DNA of 64,000 nt from a virus. Positions 4,408 to 27,614 of this stretch are shown one piece after another. The DNA lies in the IMG/VR virus record IMGVR_UViG_3300028364_000033, positions 1-64,000 of that record; one strand, 5' to 3'. The translations under genes were made by a program, and so were the position numbers. Position 1 is the first letter of the stretch; each line of letters starts with the position of its first letter. The notes beneath the pieces were generated by a model, which saw nothing but the letters and a program-made list of their open reading frames with translations, had not been told where the DNA came from and searched no databases.

Positions 4408-5538
4408 TTATAATATTTTATAAAGTTTTTTATTGTCGTAATTAAACATAAATTCACTAACTGATTCAACCTTTTTATCCTTAAGGGAGAAAAATAATCC
4501 ACTAAACTCAGCAACACCCATTTTCTTTGAAATCTCGAAAACTTTCATTGCAAATTTCTTTTGTTCTTGTTTAGTTATATTCTTTGGTAAAGATGTTTTA
4601 ATTTCTTCCCAAGTCGAATTTAAGTCACTAATCAATTTATCATAATTAGCCTTTAGCTTTTTAATTTCTTCAAGTCTTTCTGGAAATGTTGCCCCGAACT
4701 CATCTATCTCATTGGTTTTAACAACCCCAAGTATGTTGTGCTCACCAGTTTTTGATTTTAAATGGTGAACTGCCAGGTAAGCTGGGTTTTTAATTTTAAT
4801 CCTATTATGGTAGCCATCAACTACAACATAACCCTCATCGGTCCATGGCATACCCTCTAGGGTCCTAATTAAGGCACCACTATCAGTAACGTTTAAATCA
4901 TATGATTTAACCACTGGTAATCCAATCAAATGACCCAATTGAATCAACTCATCATATGATATTTCTTGTAAGGTTTTAACATTTCTGACAGTTAATAGAG
5001 TAATTGAAGATATAGCGTGTGGTTTCACAACTATATTATAAGGTGTTGTTAATTCGAAAACAAAGTTATAATCTTTATTTAATGTATTTAAATCAAAGTT
5101 ATACTTAGTTTCCATAATATCCATGAACAGTGAGTGAAAAGTCGAACCTAACTTGTTATTAACTTCACCTTCTCCTTGTATCATACCACTTGTGGCAGCA
5201 AACCATTTATTATTATATGAATATAATGTTATTAAGGAGCCGTCCAACTTCTCCAATATATGCGCAGTAGACCAATCTATTTTGGCAGCATAACCCTCAG
5301 CACTGTTGAAGAATTTAAAAAAGGGTAAACATAAAACCCTTAATGTTTTTTTCTCTAATATAAGACCCCTACATTCTTGTACTTCTGGAATCCCCATATT
5401 AGATTCGATTTGGTTATATTTTAATAATATTCGCTCACCATCGTCTTTACATATTAATTTAAAATCAGATATTGCTTTATCTAACCCATATTTTCTAATA
5501 TATTTTACTATTTTTAACATAATTTTTTTATTTAACAC
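4408..5538 (-). CDS. rnlA: RNA ligase 1 (T4 RnlA-like, Rnl1 family)
   Basis: Lysine nucleotidyltransferase motif I ILEKLDGSL (T4 Rnl1 ILTKEDGSL), ECRGLILE (T4 ECRGIMFE), KFFN, EGYVVV and RIKIKNPAY (T4 EGYVAV, HFKIKSDWY); similar length (376 vs 374 aa). Confidence 0.85.
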   Translation of the reverse strand: MLNKKIMLKIVKYIRKYGLDKAISDFKLICKDDGERILLKYNQIESNMGIPEVQECRGLILEKKTLRVLCLPFFKFFNSAEGYAAKIDWSTAHILEKLDGSLITLYSYNNKWFAATSGMIQGEGEVNNKLGSTFHSLFMDIMETKYNFDLNTLNKDYNFVFELTTPYNIVVKPHAISSITLLTVRNVKTLQEISYDELIQLGHLIGLPVVKSYDLNVTDSGALIRTLEGMPWTDEGYVVVDGYHNRIKIKNPAYLAVHHLKSKTGEHNILGVVKTNEIDEFGATFPERLEEIKKLKANYDKLISDLNSTWEEIKTSLPKNITKQEQKKFAMKVFEISKKMGVAEFSGLFFSLKDKKVESVSEFMFNYDNKKLYKIL

Positions 5539-6222: not shown

Positions 6223-7023
6223 CTATTTAAATATTTGCTCTGTTATTATTCCACTTAAAACTATGTAATTTTCAAGTACTTTGTACTCTGTAATATCATT
6301 TGACATTACTGGCTTACCACCAGCATTTACATTTACCGCAATGGTTATATGTGCAATTTTGTTATCCGTATGATAACCCTGAACGTGAACAGCTAAAGCC
6401 ATATCACTTGAACCAACGGCAACGGCCTTGATGTTCTTGGTGGAACCTAAGTCACCACGCAAGTTATCAGGCAAACCCTTACCAAAGTTAATGGTCATGT
6501 GGTGTGCGAAAACTTTCCAACCCTCTGGTATCAAGTGCCCAACGGCACCCAACAACTTTGATTTAGACTTATCATCCAATACCAATGAGGCAAACTTTGT
6601 TTTTCTATTTCTATCCTTACTTTCCATAACTTTTTTTATTGTTAATTCACCAACACCACCGTGTGATGCTATCATACCGTTAATTGTTTCTAAACCCACG
6701 TTGTGAGTATTTCTAGCAGCTAGACCTTCAGCTAACAACCCACCAGTACCAACATCCTCAAATCTAATGTTTTTATCGGCAAACCCCATTTCTAGAGCAG
6801 CTTTAACATATTTCTTTGGTTCGTTAGCCTTAATGTTCGTATTATCGATTACGCATGGGGTTATACCTTCTAACATAGATTTCTTAGCATTAAGGAAGTT
6901 CTTGTGGTGCATTTTACCATGCTCGGACCAATCTCCAGATTCAACCATTCTTTTGAAATAGGCATTGTAGTCACCAGTAACCTCAATAAGGTCATCAGTG
7001 GAGTGTATAATACCCTCGCCCAC
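6223..7023 (-). CDS. polynucleotide-kinase-like domain fused to 2H phosphoesterase (LigT/CPDase-like); P-loop lies upstream of an in-frame TAA (see findings)
   Basis: two HxTx motifs (HHMTINFG, AHITIAVN) typical of 2H phosphoesterases; VIDNTN kinase-family motif; GVPGSGKST-type P-loop is encoded immediately upstream (7042-7077) but interrupted by TAA; track ORF begins at a GTG. Confidence 0.6.
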   Translation of the reverse strand: MGEGIIHSTDDLIEVTGDYNAYFKRMVESGDWSEHGKMHHKNFLNAKKSMLEGITPCVIDNTNIKANEPKKYVKAALEMGFADKNIRFEDVGTGGLLAEGLAARNTHNVGLETINGMIASHGGVGELTIKKVMESKDRNRKTKFASLVLDDKSKSKLLGAVGHLIPEGWKVFAHHMTINFGKGLPDNLRGDLGSTKNIKAVAVGSSDMALAVHVQGYHTDNKIAHITIAVNVNAGGKPVMSNDITEYKVLENYIVLSGIITEQIFK

Positions 7024-7184
7024 TAATTCTTTAGCTCTAGTTGATTTCCCACTACCTGGTTACGGTACCCCTCTCATGATAATCAATATCTGAGAGGGGC
7101 GAGTGATTTTAATATTTAAACTATTATGTGAGATATCCTCACGTAAAATTTTTCTTATATTATTTTTCATATTTTTTTATAAAT

Positions 7185-16739: not shown

Positions 16740-17852
16740 TTAATTCAAATACTTTAAAAAATTCTGTAATTCTAATTTTTTAATCATTCTACCCATTTCT
16801 GGACCAGCTTCAATACCTAACTTTTGAACCTCGGCACCACCAATTGATAATTCGAATTTTATAAATGACTCAAATAATTCAGTGTTTAAACCAACTAAGT
16901 TTGAGAATTTTCTAATCTGTTCGTCATTAACACCAGAATTATTCTGCATCTTCTTAAGTTCATATACATTGTTAACATTTAACATTGTTAGATTTACTAA
17001 GAAAACAATTCCCCTAATCTCATTGATGGAGTACGTCAATTTATTCAACTTACCGTTCAATTGTTTGGGGTCATTATTTCTTAACATGTATGCCAATAGA
17101 ACAGTTGGGTCCCTTTCCTCTTGAAAGTCAGTATCAACATTCTGTATATCCTTAAATATCCAATCTAATAGATTGTATTGATTTAGTAGCCCTAGGAAGT
17201 ATTTAATCGATTTAGCGGTCTTAATACCCTTTAAAAACTCGTCTCTAATCCTCTCAGATGATATTCCCTCTAAGCTGGCATCATTTGCGAGTGATTTTTC
17301 AGCATCAGCATCCAAATCTGAATTAAATCTACCAGCGAACCTAATTGCTCTAAGTATTCTAAGTCTATCTTCACCGAATCTATCATTGGCTGAACCAACG
17401 GTCCTAACAACTCGGTTCTTCAAGTCATCAATACCGCCAACAAGGTCAACAACCTCACCAGTTTCGATATCATAAAATAATGCATTGATTGTTAAATCCC
17501 TACGCATAACATCGGTATCAATATTCGTGAATTCAACAGAATTTGGTCTGCGGCCATCCGAACCTAAATCAGACCTAAATGTAGCGATTTCATATTCATC
17601 TGAATCGGTGAATACATTTATGACCCCAAAGCTTTTTCCAGTCCCTAATGTTCTAAGACCAGCGGTCTTCATCATATTCTCGACTATATCTGGTTTAGCA
17701 TCGGTAGCTAAATCCCAATCTTTTATTGACTTTTTAAGTAATGAGTCACGAACGGCACCACCGACAACAAATAGTTTATAACCATTGCTTACAAATATAT
17801 CCTTGATTTTTATAATGTCTTTTGGAACCTGTAAGTTAAATTTAACTCTCAT
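16740..17852 (-). CDS. cca: tRNA nucleotidyltransferase (CCA-adding enzyme / poly(A) polymerase head-domain family)
   Basis: FVVGGAVRDSLL...DWDLAT...GTGKSFGVINV...EIATFRSD and RRDLTINALFYD motifs diagnostic of class II CCA-adding enzymes. Confidence 0.85.
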   Translation of the reverse strand: MRVKFNLQVPKDIIKIKDIFVSNGYKLFVVGGAVRDSLLKKSIKDWDLATDAKPDIVENMMKTAGLRTLGTGKSFGVINVFTDSDEYEIATFRSDLGSDGRRPNSVEFTNIDTDVMRRDLTINALFYDIETGEVVDLVGGIDDLKNRVVRTVGSANDRFGEDRLRILRAIRFAGRFNSDLDADAEKSLANDASLEGISSERIRDEFLKGIKTAKSIKYFLGLLNQYNLLDWIFKDIQNVDTDFQEERDPTVLLAYMLRNNDPKQLNGKLNKLTYSINEIRGIVFLVNLTMLNVNNVYELKKMQNNSGVNDEQIRKFSNLVGLNTELFESFIKFELSIGGAEVQKLGIEAGPEMGRMIKKLELQNFLKYLN

Positions 17853-24268: not shown

Positions 24269-24337
24269 GCAAAAAAAAGACCCACCATGAATATGATGAG
24301 TCTTTGGAGGCAAGATAAAAATACGTTAAACCTAAAA

Positions 24338-24389
24338 CGTCACAGATAATATCTTATTAATTATAATTAATAAGATATTATCTGTGACG
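24338..24389. repeat. 52-bp perfect palindrome (25-nt arms, 2-nt centre)
   Basis: cgtcacagataatatcttattaatt-at-aattaataagatattatctgtgacg read directly. Confidence 0.9.
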
Positions 24390-24464
24390 CATGCGTTAAT
24401 CTTTTAGTCACCTAATTTAGGTGTGCAACAACCACTACGTGCAAGTAGATTAACTTCGGTTGTT

Positions 24465-24502
24465 TAGCGGGGGGAGGATTCGAACCTCCGACCTCTGGGT
24501 TA
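24465..24502 (-). tRNA. initiator-type tRNA-Met(CAU), 3' exon (positions 36-73)
   Basis: TAA-CCCAG-AGGTC-GGAGG-TTCGAAT-CCTCC-CCCCGCT-A; pairs with 5' part at 25242-25276. Confidence 0.6.
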
Positions 24503-25241
24503 TATTAATTATTTATTATCATACTCCCAATGATGGTTAGGGCATAATCCCATTAGGTTTGATAATAAATTTATTTCTCCTATTGTTGTAAATCCATCAA
24601 ATTCTGAAACGGCTTTTATGTGAGCCACTTCAACATGATTTAAATAACCACAATTTGCACAACTTGGTGAAGGGTTAGATTCAAAAAACACACTCCTAGC
24701 GTGTTTTTGGATGGCACTCCTTGCGGATTGCCAATTTTTACGTTTGTTAAAGAGTTCATCTTTTGTTAAAGAAGATATACCTATTGATTTGATTAATTTT
24801 AGCTCCACACCTAACATTGAGCATCGTCTTTCAATAGAATCCTTCACATCTGAAGAAACTTTACTTTTGTATCCTAATTTTTCACCAATTTCCTTCCACC
24901 CTTTAGAATTATTTATAATAAAAATAAAATTAATGTCAGATATTTTATTAATTAAACTATCTTTTCTATAGCCAACGTGACTAAAATTTTCATTTTTATT
25001 AACTTTTCTTCGTGTTGGTAAGGAAATTTCCAATTTCTTTGCCGCTTTTTTAATAGCGTTTCCAGAAACGTTATACAATTTACCAATAGCAGTATAACTT
25101 TTATTCTGCTCTAAAATTAATCTTTCTAAATCTTTCTTATTATATTTATCCACACTAATAAATAGTATGAAAAGATATAAACGAACCTAATCCCTAAAAA
25201 TTAATTTTAGTTCGAATATTTTTCAGTCTTTTAAAACTGTG
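24503..25241 (-). mobile_element. 739-bp insertion in the anticodon loop of tRNA-fMet carrying an HNH endonuclease gene (intron-like, non-canonical)
   Basis: lies between anticodon-loop position 35 and 36; ORF fills ~88% of the insertion; no G at the 3' boundary. Confidence 0.55.
24509..25153 (-). CDS. HNH homing endonuclease
   Basis: C-terminal CANCGYLNHVEVAHIKAV...LCPNHHWEYD HNH/Zn motif; N-terminal HTH-like region. Confidence 0.7.
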   Translation of the reverse strand: MDKYNKKDLERLILEQNKSYTAIGKLYNVSGNAIKKAAKKLEISLPTRRKVNKNENFSHVGYRKDSLINKISDINFIFIINNSKGWKEIGEKLGYKSKVSSDVKDSIERRCSMLGVELKLIKSIGISSLTKDELFNKRKNWQSARSAIQKHARSVFFESNPSPSCANCGYLNHVEVAHIKAVSEFDGFTTIGEINLLSNLMGLCPNHHWEYDNK

Positions 25242-25276
25242 TGAGCCCAGCGAGCTGGCCACTGCTCCACCCCGCA
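25242..25276 (-). tRNA. initiator-type tRNA-Met(CAU), 5' exon (positions 1-35)
   Basis: TGCGGGG-T-G-GAGC-AGTGGCCA-GCTC-G-CTGGG-CTCA; matches E. coli tRNA-fMet position by position, including GGG/CCC in the anticodon stem and a 1:72 mismatch. Confidence 0.6.
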
Positions 25277-25350
25277 ATGTGTCTTTTAATTAGGTTTTTC
25301 ACCTATTAACTATGGTGGGTTTAAAAGTTTTGTTTATTATATATAGTACA

Positions 25351-25379
25351 AATATAGTAAATGTTATTCTTTATGTCAA
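25351..25379 (-). promoter_or_regulatory. sigma70-type promoter TTGACA-N17-TATATT upstream of split tRNA-fMet
   Basis: minus-strand CTTGACAtaaagaataacatttacTATATTtg. Confidence 0.5.
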
Positions 25380-25688
25380 GTTTTTTTTACTTTTTTTTTC
25401 AATTAATGCATAATCATCAGCATATTCTTCAATTATGACATAAATAGTGTGGTTTTTATCAATATTATGTACAACATTCACAACCCTATAGTATTTTAGT
25501 TCATCCACTAAATACACTATTTCATGTATTCTTGGTATTGCTTTAACTGAAACATCAGTTTTTACTATCTTCCAAGATTCGTTAAGAAATGTAACCTTAT
25601 GCTTTTTAAACATCATATATTGTTTATATAAAAATACTAATATTAAAAAAAAAATAAATAGAAACACTTTATTTTTATAAATAAACAT
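25371..25688 (-). CDS. hypothetical membrane protein (N-terminal TM)
   Basis: ORF track; FLFIFFLILVFLY hydrophobic segment; overlaps predicted promoter, so uncertain. Confidence 0.3.
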   Translation of the reverse strand: MFIYKNKVFLFIFFLILVFLYKQYMMFKKHKVTFLNESWKIVKTDVSVKAIPRIHEIVYLVDELKYYRVVNVVHNIDKNHTIYVIIEEYADDYALIEKKSKKNLT

Positions 25689-27225: not shown

Positions 27226-27235
27226 AAAAGTGGAC

Positions 27236-27330
27236 GTTATGGGAGTCGAACCCATGTCTTACAAACTCTTCAAAAGATTTCTAGAAGTTTAGGTCATAAT
27301 TTATCAAACTATCCGAAATTCTTCCTTACT
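27236..27330 (-). tRNA. tRNA-like element with canonical T-arm (ATGGG-TTCGACT-CCCAT); acceptor not resolved, possibly interrupted or degenerate
   Basis: T-loop signature and a family promoter 285 nt upstream; cloverleaf not completed by eye. Confidence 0.3.
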
Positions 27331-27614
27331 TTTATAGTGGTTTTGGTCCCACTCATAGATTACCATGATTAATAGATTACTATTATTTGGTGATTTATCA
27401 CCATCAACATTAAATTAGGCTAATGCTACCTCTCCCATACCAACACCCAAGGTGGCGGTATCTAGGAAATTTTTGTCAATGTCAAACTCGTTGCCATTTA
27501 AAAAGTGTTTGATAGTGATTTTAGGAGCTTCCAATCTAACTCCACTTCCTTACTAATTACGAATATCCATAATCAATTCCGTAAAACGCCCAATTGTTTT
27601 AATAAATATATACA

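Follow-up and report, generated by a model that had tools for sequence, protein, structure and literature searches.

The 64,000-nt stretch of viral DNA analysed here (the window; positions 1 to 64,000 of the IMG/VR record IMGVR_UViG_3300028364_000033) carries an initiator-type tRNA-Met gene that is split within its anticodon by a 739-nt insertion filled largely by the gene of an HNH homing endonuclease. The insertion belongs to a new, firmly established family of mobile HNH cassettes that are found at C34|A35 in initiator-type tRNA-Met genes of phages, lack any known ribozyme and carry a conserved structured leader; the elements that host the family are the tRNA arrays of large A/T-rich phages. 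The wider proposition, namely that such a family exists and that its tRNA would moreover be restored by protein-mediated excision with sealing by a phage Rnl1-type ligase, is assigned a probability of about 0.5 on the comparisons described below. The descriptive part by itself (insertion site, orientation, transcription from the promoter side, leader, borrowed stop codon, spread as a block and selected open reading frame (ORF)) is very probably correct. All coordinates are those of the window unless a locus label precedes them, and both the tRNA and the HNH gene lie on the minus strand.

A first, sequence-only reading of the window had joined two minus-strand segments, 25276-25242 (TGCGGGGTGGAGCAGTGGCCAGCTCGCTGGGCTCA) and 24502-24465 (TAACCCAGAGGTCGGAGGTTCGAATCCTCCCCCCGCTA), into a perfect cloverleaf. 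Both sequences are as it gave them, and ARAGORN identifies the joined halves as tRNA-Met(CAT); applied to the genomic region with introns allowed, the program finds a single tRNA-Met whose anticodon loop is interrupted by a 739-nt intron. The split tRNA is missed by a standard ARAGORN run and by Rfam at gathering thresholds. The HNH-filled insertion is equally real, with 645 of the 739 nt belonging to the ORF (87%, against an earlier estimate of ~88%). The ORF stop lies 6 nt short of the 3' half as first delimited and the tRNA gene lacks an encoded CCA, as had been claimed, and 88 nt lie 5' of the ORF (earlier estimate ~85 nt). Unpaired 1:72, A11:U24, G-C pairs at 29-31:39-41 and a CAU anticodon are the identity elements of bacterial initiator tRNAs. 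The initiator signatures ascribed to the gene are all present, with U:U at 1:72, three G-C pairs (G29-31:C39-41) and the anticodon CAU once the halves are joined, and A11:U24 is found as well.

The exact junction had to be revised. The anticodon is indeed split, but the boundary was placed one base off. The window alone allows two placements of the junction that differ by one base, CTC|A...T|ATAA and CTCA|...A|TAA, while C34|A35 is the sole junction that gives CAU in each of 17 homologous copies; because only this position does so in all copies, the exons are placed at 25276-25243 and 24503-24465. The 5' exon (25243..25276, tRNA positions 1-34) comprises the acceptor 5' strand, the D arm, the 5' strand of the anticodon stem and C32 U33 C34. 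The intervening sequence reported by ARAGORN (24504..25242), consisting of a leader and the HNH gene, begins with ACACAG and ends with TTAAT. The 3' exon (24465..24503, positions 35-73) holds A35 U36 A37 A38, the 3' strand of the anticodon stem, the variable loop, the T arm, the acceptor 3' strand and the discriminator A.

Related loci were collected by a protein-guided scan of viral and metagenome contigs, and the loci found (labelled with L-numbers) were then checked by intron-aware tRNA searches and inspection of their flanks. At least 18 distinct split loci from independent metagenomes have an HNH homologue interrupting a tRNA-Met-like gene in the anticodon loop, and this recurrence shows that the split arrangement is not due to chance. 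Their HNH proteins are 50-99% identical to one another and the ORF is co-oriented with the tRNA in every split copy. Split tRNAs are carried by roughly 20 contigs, for example IMGVR_UViG_3300028591_000094, IMGVR_UViG_3300028888_000044, IMGVR_UViG_3300013900_000002, Ga0315900_10000016 and JAEIGA010000004.1. The arrangement seen in the window is present in every site-spanning contig of this phage, out of 20 contigs obtained from JGI, ENA and Logan samples; the phage occurs in JGI 3300012031, 3300012037, 3300028373 and 3300028413, in ENA ERZ27315552 and ERZ27315606, and in SRR6185717. The exon-cassette-exon blocks of L001 and L204 are 92% identical, with the similarity ending exactly at the tRNA ends and the flanks being 70-77% identical or unalignable. 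The window and L204 are syntenic over a 237-aa ORF, a transfer-messenger RNA (tmRNA) gene and the split tRNA, with identities of 74.5% in the block and ~68% in the flanks. Furthermore, many HNH homologues are free-standing and directly adjoin intact tRNA-Met(CAU) genes. This combination of block transfer with occupied and empty sites is classical homing-endonuclease biology and, judged by these sequence comparisons, the cassette is mobile. The suggestion that the tRNA gene had been recently inactivated oversimplifies matters, since the family is old and diversified (HNH identity down to 50%, dS >1), invariably occupies one site and has a conserved RNA leader.

Several loci depart from the standard arrangement. 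In L038 a free-standing HNH ORF (downstream of 3450) runs through the 5' half of an intact tRNA-Met and stops at the UAA of its loop, and megaphage copies of the L005 type have an extended ORF in which an ATAAG remnant of the 3' exon survives; both may represent intermediates between the free-standing and the in-tRNA lifestyle. In L022 and L236 a shorter HNH gene (148 aa; L022 2941-3503) without a structured leader interrupts a tRNA resembling tRNA-Met. Its loop would read AUU|AUAA, which would make it a tRNA-Ile(UAU) or a decaying copy. The window phage itself holds other homing endonucleases, with at least four GIY-YIG genes, another HNH gene and an intein-like segment. A GIY-YIG/NUMOD gene and an HNH gene are located inside the tRNA array (10996-11667 and 13730-14215, minus strand), three further window ORFs match GIY-YIG, and 47250-49490 matches an intein-splicing domain.

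An intron-less allele of the window phage was not found, as exact-protein look-ups returned intron-containing contigs only. Syntenic relatives sought through the dNMP kinase were too distant and had no tRNA at the site, and the joined-exon pattern matched only an unrelated G+C-rich contig with an ordinary tRNA-Met. Among GenBank phages, DNA matches were limited to a 36-nt tRNA segment and close protein homologues were absent, so that there is no cultured model. In full-text literature searches, no account was found of an HNH gene that interrupts the anticodon of a tRNA with no ribozyme present.

The HNH gene (24509..25153, minus strand) encodes a protein of 214 aa with two N-terminal helix-turn-helix (HTH) modules and a C-terminal HNH domain. 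It matches Pfam HNH_2 (1.4e-5; 25.3 bits with a cut-off of 21 bits) and the HNH endonuclease families of PHROG (PHROG 8446), with the HTH part matching LrpA and the HNH part matching TagI, and the residues C..C..H..N..CPNHH are invariant in the alignment. Between copies dN/dS is 0.13-0.34, with dS above 1 for most copies; by this measure the ORF is under purifying selection and the gene active, the DNA of tRNA-Met being the putative cleavage target of the protein. In all copies but that of the window, the stop codon of the ORF is U36-A37-A38 of the tRNA. The window ORF stops at an earlier TAA in the same frame, two codons upstream.

The sequence past the 5' junction reads (A/U)UAC(A/G)G in the copies of the family and the last nucleotides of the insertion are (A/U)U, never G; in three copies the 5' junction reads CUCUUAC. 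The leader of ~90 nt shows a conserved order of elements, with AUA (ACA in the window) followed by two hairpins, hp1 and hp2, and a hairpin around the start codon, hp3 (all on the minus strand). Hairpin hp1 (CAGUU-UUAAAA-GACUG, 25224..25239) is situated 3 nt past the 5' junction and has a conserved hexaloop, NYAAAA; 97% of its cells are paired in 15 copies and pair 2 covaries, being A-U in nine copies and G-C in six. Hairpin hp2 (25182..25214) consists of an invariant helix, CGAAC...GUUCG, with a variable A/U-rich loop, and its 5' strand UUCGAAC is also complementary to the T-loop of the same tRNA. Hairpin hp3 (CAUACUA-UUUAU-UAGUGUG, 25151..25169) surrounds the GTG start codon and carries the conserved loop motif ACUAUUUAU; its stem is kept in most copies despite sequence differences, and it may help to control translation. 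A second type of leader (L003, L218, L222 and L229) contains an additional hairpin inside hp1. Overall, the leader is far more conserved than the linked synonymous sites, and a regular-expression sweep of all HNH-related loci found the hp2 leader in in-tRNA copies and never with free-standing homologues. A 5-bp/7-nt hairpin in the HHWEYD codons was rejected, as it shows no covariation. Searches of viral contigs with leader DNA patterns (GAACTAA...GTTCGTTT and GGCTCATACRG...AAAA) gave chance matches among the matches listed and added nothing.

The two tRNA halves still look like those of a working gene. When the joined exons of 15 copies are aligned, standard pairs fill all cells of the D, anticodon and T stems, and two-sided changes are seen at 11 pairs, 7 of which bridge both exons across ~740 nt. 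A11:U24 and a G-C pair at 30:40 are present in all 15 copies, and 1:72 is unpaired in 12 of them by means of differing bases (U:U, A:A or C:A). Exon identity amounts to 72-97% despite saturation of the synonymous sites in the linked ORF (dS >1). L221 and L223 belong to one phage lineage (96.4% identity over 1.25 kb including flanks), and their exons differ solely by one compensatory D-stem pair, G10-C25 to U-A, an outcome with a probability of ~0.003 for two random substitutions. In addition, A35 is invariant even though it occupies the third position, free to vary, of the codon for a last residue that is not conserved. Neither the 64-kb window nor the flanks of the split loci showed another initiator-type tRNA, and the other CAU tRNAs are elongator-like.

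The phage arrays in which the HNH-cassette family occurs also contain insertions without an ORF, of 39-127 nt, that interrupt the anticodon (at 34/35 to 36/37) of tRNA-Arg, -Val, -Glu and -Lys genes with no other defect; those in Arg, Val and Glu are at 34/35 or 35/36. They are located at L003 6164-6337, L206 865-1032, L022 2499-2699 and L231 2312-2424. The 101-nt insertion in tRNA-Arg(UCU) of L003 starts with (C)AUACGG like the HNH-cassette family, and its 3' end is formed by a 12-bp acceptor/T-arm minihelix and a single nucleotide before the exon. The tRNA-Val(UAC) of L206 contains an 80-nt insertion and the tRNA-Glu(UUC) of L022 a 127-nt insertion with a T-arm-like hairpin 8 nt from the exon. 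Three of the ORF-less insertions end in such a hairpin or in an acceptor/T-arm minihelix 1-10 nt before the 3' exon, which is suggestive of RNase Z/P-type processing. Because homing cannot keep the exons of ORF-less insertions intact, these genes point to a general, ribozyme-free clearing of anticodon-loop insertions.

The insertion also lacks the features of a group I or group II intron. The view that it does not resemble a group I intron is borne out by the absence, in all 17 copies and also after correction of the boundary, of omega-G and of the U-1 that pairs with G in P1 of group I introns. The 5' exon ends in C34 (A35 in the alternative register of the window) in 17 of 17 copies, the last nucleotide of the intron is U (or A) in all copies, and the last 8 nt are G-free in most. 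No conserved internal guide sequence or P1 pairing was found across the copies. The covariance-model search that the sequence-only reading had proposed was carried out with Rfam on 24300-25500 and gave no intron or ribozyme family (the group I model RF00028 included) at E<=10, and ten homologous loci gave no group I, group II or ribozyme match at E<=1. As a positive control, the same Rfam search detected full-length Intron_gpI matches of 22.9-47.5 bits that bridge ORFs in tRNA-Arg(CCU) introns; because these were detected despite their ORF, an ordinary hidden group I core would have been seen. Group II introns have 5' GUGYG, 3' AY and domains V/VI and usually encode a reverse transcriptase; the copies, in contrast, start with ACACAG/AUACRG, have no Rfam group II match and encode an HNH protein without a reverse transcriptase. 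A manual search for P1, omega-G, the hammerhead NUH/CUGAUGA elements and a bulge-helix-bulge revealed nothing consistent. Duplex folding of the 5' leader with the 3' junction in 18 copies gave only A/U-rich, non-covarying candidates, which were rejected (AUAUUC:GARUAU and self-pairing of UUUUAAAA). No consistent bulge-helix-bulge-like junction pairing was found in these 18 copies, the A/U-rich sequence making weak pairings uninformative. The bacterial tRNA introns catalogued so far are all group I introns, of which 98.5% have U-1/omega-G, and the classical type in initiator tRNA is CU/...g/CAUAA (Williams 2020). L308, L310, L316 and ~15 similar genome loci contain group I introns of tRNA-Arg(CCU/UCU) in which a distant homologue of the HNH protein is encoded on the antisense strand; their hosts are cyanobacteria, Bacteroidota and Anaerolineales, and the Intron_gpI scores are below the Rfam gathering score. 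In L209 (915-1242), a tRNA-Leu(UAA) is interrupted by a 244-nt insertion with G as its last nucleotide and with R/S elements like those of group I introns (ACAGACUAC and GAUAGUCG), and this insertion is not reported by Rfam at E<=1.

If the split gene is expressed as a functional tRNA, the tRNA would still be made and its precursor would fold by way of the stems formed between the exons. Both junctions read Y|AUA and have a single-stranded, A/U-rich context beside a helix, namely the anticodon stem and hp1. Such sites could suit a cut of the RNase E/G type or the anticodon-nuclease type, and a protein endonuclease of either kind, in the former case a host RNase E/G-like enzyme, would cut at both. 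The remaining nick in the anticodon loop, which is the kind of break that Rnl1 naturally acts on, would be sealed by the phage Rnl1-type ligase, with the kinase/cyclic phosphodiesterase (CPD) healing the ends if these are 2',3'-cyclic phosphate and 5'-OH, and CCA would then be added by the phage enzyme. In the window phage, the joined CUC-AUAA molecule would contain GCTCGCTGGGCTC|ATAACCCAGAGGTCGGAGG.

Candidate enzymes for the later steps are encoded on the minus strand of the window. The gene at 4408..5538 encodes an RNA ligase of the T4 Rnl1 family (Pfam RNA_lig_T4_1, 9e-13, 49 bits with a cut-off of 28.3; PHROG 562, 7e-46; TIGR02308, 5.4e-22, below the equivalog cut-off) and is a candidate for the sealing enzyme. 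Close relatives of this ligase were found on other contigs only, with no ligase in the split-locus flanks that were fetched. Adjoining it is a polynucleotide-kinase-like/2H cyclic-phosphodiesterase gene (6223..7168) with two HxT motifs and a weak match to Pfam tRNA_lig_CPD, below the cut-off, whose product would be a candidate for end healing. Of the RNA ligase and kinase invoked earlier, the ligase is therefore real, while the 'kinase' turns out to be this kinase/2H-phosphodiesterase gene, with its Walker A motif behind an in-frame TAA; it could be a split gene, a pseudogene or subject to read-through. A CCA-adding enzyme, needed because the tRNA encodes no CCA and likewise invoked before, is present at 16740..17852 (Pfam PolyA_pol head domain, 2.7e-37). 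Furthermore, the window encodes a peptidyl-tRNA hydrolase and a NUDIX protein. A ribozyme-independent splicing of phage tRNAs by protein RNases and an Rnl1-type ligase, acting on ORF-less and HNH-bearing insertions at 34/35 alike, is put forward tentatively, at slightly below even odds.

Excision and sealing have to be weighed against an unspliced, selfish insertion, in which the HNH protein cuts an intact tRNA-Met gene in the anticodon region and copies its own gene into it, with the tRNA being destroyed and the cassette being expressed by means of the tRNA promoter and the UAA of the loop. The loss would be tolerated because the host supplies initiator tRNA, and the halves would look perfect because each round of homing re-derives them and only target-like exons home again. 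Repeated homing into intact alleles can thus mimic both exon conservation and compensatory differences. A number of observations fit such an insertion and weigh against restoration of the tRNA. Block transfer is bounded by the tRNA ends, and the exons of L001 and L204 differ in their outer parts only, the inner parts being identical, as would fit retained recipient ends. Exon and HNH divergence are weakly correlated (Spearman 0.02), although the 73-nt sequences make this test uninformative. Many homologues stand free beside intact tRNA-Met genes, and decayed split copies occur, such as L238 with a dead ORF and a 9-nt loop, and L227/L211, L231, L219 and L233 with truncated or mismatched exons. 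'Restored' arrangements of an exon relic, an HNH gene and an intact tRNA are seen in L234, L301 and the L005-type loci. The window phage is full of other homing endonucleases, and the splitting of phage genes by free-standing endonucleases is well established. The Rfam scans gave no ribozyme, and the 59 window ORFs scanned contain no EndA (tRNA_int_endo), RtcB, Tpt1 or anticodon-nuclease domain. Within the intron there is no mark of the 3' junction, as the ORF runs up to it, and the Walker A sequence of the kinase, PGSGKST, directly follows the in-frame TAA inside a GTACCGTAACC repeat. RNA ligases are, moreover, frequently found in phages with many tRNAs for unrelated reasons, for instance to repair the damage done by anticodon nucleases. 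A selfish insertion is at odds, however, with the covarying anticodon-stem pairs around the cassette, which are 100% paired in 15 copies, with the single compensatory pair that separates the exons of L221 and L223 (~0.3% for two random substitutions) and with the invariance of A35. It does not readily account for a covarying hairpin 3 nt from the junction in a leader that is absent from free-standing copies, or for the ORF-less insertions with perfect exons in neighbouring tRNAs, which homing cannot refresh. As the site-spanning contigs of the window phage all carry the insertion and no empty allele was seen, there is also no visible pool of targets. On balance, a selfish insertion is the main rival and a real contender, though on the doubtful side.

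The other explanations would require either an RNA catalyst or an error in the assembly. An undescribed ribozyme, by which the leader (AUA, hp1 and hp2) would cleave or splice itself, with joining by the ribozyme or an RNA ligase, is consistent with leader conservation above that of linked synonymous sites, the invariant helix, the conserved hexaloop, the link of the leader to the in-tRNA lifestyle and the similar start (AUACGG and a closing helix) of the ORF-less tRNA-Arg insertion. It is nevertheless improbable, as no Rfam ribozyme matches, no RNA element is present at the 3' junction, L214 has perfect exons and an intact ORF without the 3' strand of hp2 and without any of hp3, and the L022 type has merely a 24-nt unstructured leader. 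A disguised group I (or group II) intron with its core inside the ORF and mis-assigned boundaries might be expected from the distant HNH homologues in genuine group I introns of tRNA-Arg(CCU) and from the fact that phage group I introns commonly carry HNH genes (PMC3984707). Such an intron is highly improbable given that no register that fits a 7-nt loop gives U-1 or omega-G in the 17 copies, that P1 pairing is not conserved, that the window has no Intron_gpI or group II match even at E<=10 with control introns scoring 22.9-47.5 bits, and that the 3' end of the ORF shows ordinary synonymous variation. An assembly artefact or chimera of two unrelated tRNA fragments around an HNH gene has nothing but the metagenomic origin of the sequence in its favour, and the recurrence of the arrangement in all site-spanning contigs among the 20 of this phage and in at least 18 divergent loci leaves it with practically no weight.

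Compared with known systems, the cassette resembles the group I introns of initiator tRNA in being an intervening sequence of the anticodon loop with an endonuclease ORF inside and with homing mobility. These introns interrupt U33|C34, whereas the window cassette interrupts C34|A35, has no U-1, omega-G or detectable core, and has an ORF that reaches the 3' junction (the ORFs of the family end in the exon). Free-standing endonucleases that split phage genes are similar in that an HNH or GIY-YIG gene is found in or beside its target without an intron or intein, in their block transfer and in the accompanying RNA element that may neutralise the insertion. Examples are mobE, which splits nrdA of Aeromonas phage Aeh1 ('genes in pieces'), and the endonuclease genes in the tRNA region of phage T5. 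A further case is mobA with the bypass element of T4 gene 60 (bioRxiv 10.1101/2022.08.31.505936). Here, in contrast, the split gene is a tRNA that is cut inside the anticodon, and its function would require RNA ligation, because a split tRNA cannot work as two pieces.

In Archaea and Eukarya, tRNA splicing is carried out by an EndA/Sen endonuclease and an RtcB or Trl1 ligase (PMC4090602, PMC3400036). These protein-spliced introns are likewise ribozyme-free and located in the anticodon loop, and the Rnl1-family ligase and 2H phosphodiesterase of the window belong to the same enzyme families as the corresponding domains, ligase and CPD, of Trl1 from fungi and plants. They are, however, inserted at 37/38 with a bulge-helix-bulge at the exon-intron junctions, whereas the window insertion is at 34/35, no such motif could be drawn and no EndA-like gene was found in the 59 ORFs; the setting is that of a bacterial virus, with a tmRNA, a sigma-70-type promoter and bacterial initiator hallmarks. 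The tRNAs of Lak megaphages contain 'enigmatic' unclassified introns (Devoto et al. 2019, PMC6784885). These are also unclassifiable anticodon-loop insertions, some with tRNA-like structure, and resemble the ORF-less insertions described above, but they are short and ORF-less, and no HNH-bearing form, mobility or mechanism has been reported for them. Finally, Pnkp and Rnl1 of phage T4 repair the anticodon-loop breaks made by PrrC (PMC3400036). Sealing of a nick in a tRNA anticodon loop, the task for which this ligase family is known, is what is proposed as the last step here, with the difference that the T4 enzymes repair host-inflicted damage, while the ligase of the window phage would complete the removal of a 739-nt insertion.

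The split tRNA lies in what appears to be a transcription unit on the minus strand. A sigma-70-like sequence, TTGACA-17-TATATT (25351..25379), matches the consensus at 11 of 12 positions, is the best site of the region in a consensus scan and would act as a promoter ~70 nt upstream of the tRNA 5' end. Downstream of the tRNA by 78 nt, a long hairpin with a 20-pair stem followed by a T-rich tail (24340..24387), also seen as a palindrome in the Rfam scan, is a terminator-like end of the unit. The 78-nt trailer between the tRNA 3' end and this hairpin (24388-24464, minus strand) is conserved between the window and L001, with compensatory changes (CAACC/GGUUG versus CAAUC/GAUUG; CACC/GGUG versus CACCG/CGGUG), and it may be a small structured RNA. 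The phage tmRNA gene (27230-27591, minus strand; Rfam RF00023, 58 bits) encodes the tag peptide GNEFDIDKNFLDTATLGVGMGEVALA according to ARAGORN and has a syntenic homologue in L204 (822-1178). Four tRNAs of the array are reported by ARAGORN as 'tRNA-???' with 6-nt anticodon loops (10429-10503, 10571-10663, 13000-13080 and 14534-14605, minus strand). One of these loops reads GACUAG and could belong to an amber-suppressor-like tRNA; L001, L204 and L205 carry a tRNA(CUA).

To our knowledge, all tRNA introns characterised in bacteria and their viruses are group I ribozymes, and the splicing of tRNAs by proteins is considered a feature of archaea and eukaryotes. The family described here constitutes a widespread, maintained homing cassette in the anticodon of phage initiator tRNA that has no known ribozyme and whose halves keep the hallmarks of a working gene, and it explains tRNA genes that standard annotation misses. 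If the insertion is not spliced, the family would provide the first clear example of a homing endonuclease maintained through serial destruction of tRNA genes, and would caution that even perfect 'split tRNAs' from metagenomes may lack function. If it is spliced, the family would represent a new splicing route in phages, a counterpart in the bacterial world of archaeal and eukaryal tRNA splicing, in which RNA ligase 1 gains a constitutive role beyond damage repair. This would suggest an ancestral function for ligases of the Rnl1/Trl1 type and would provide a model for the origin of ORF-bearing tRNA introns.

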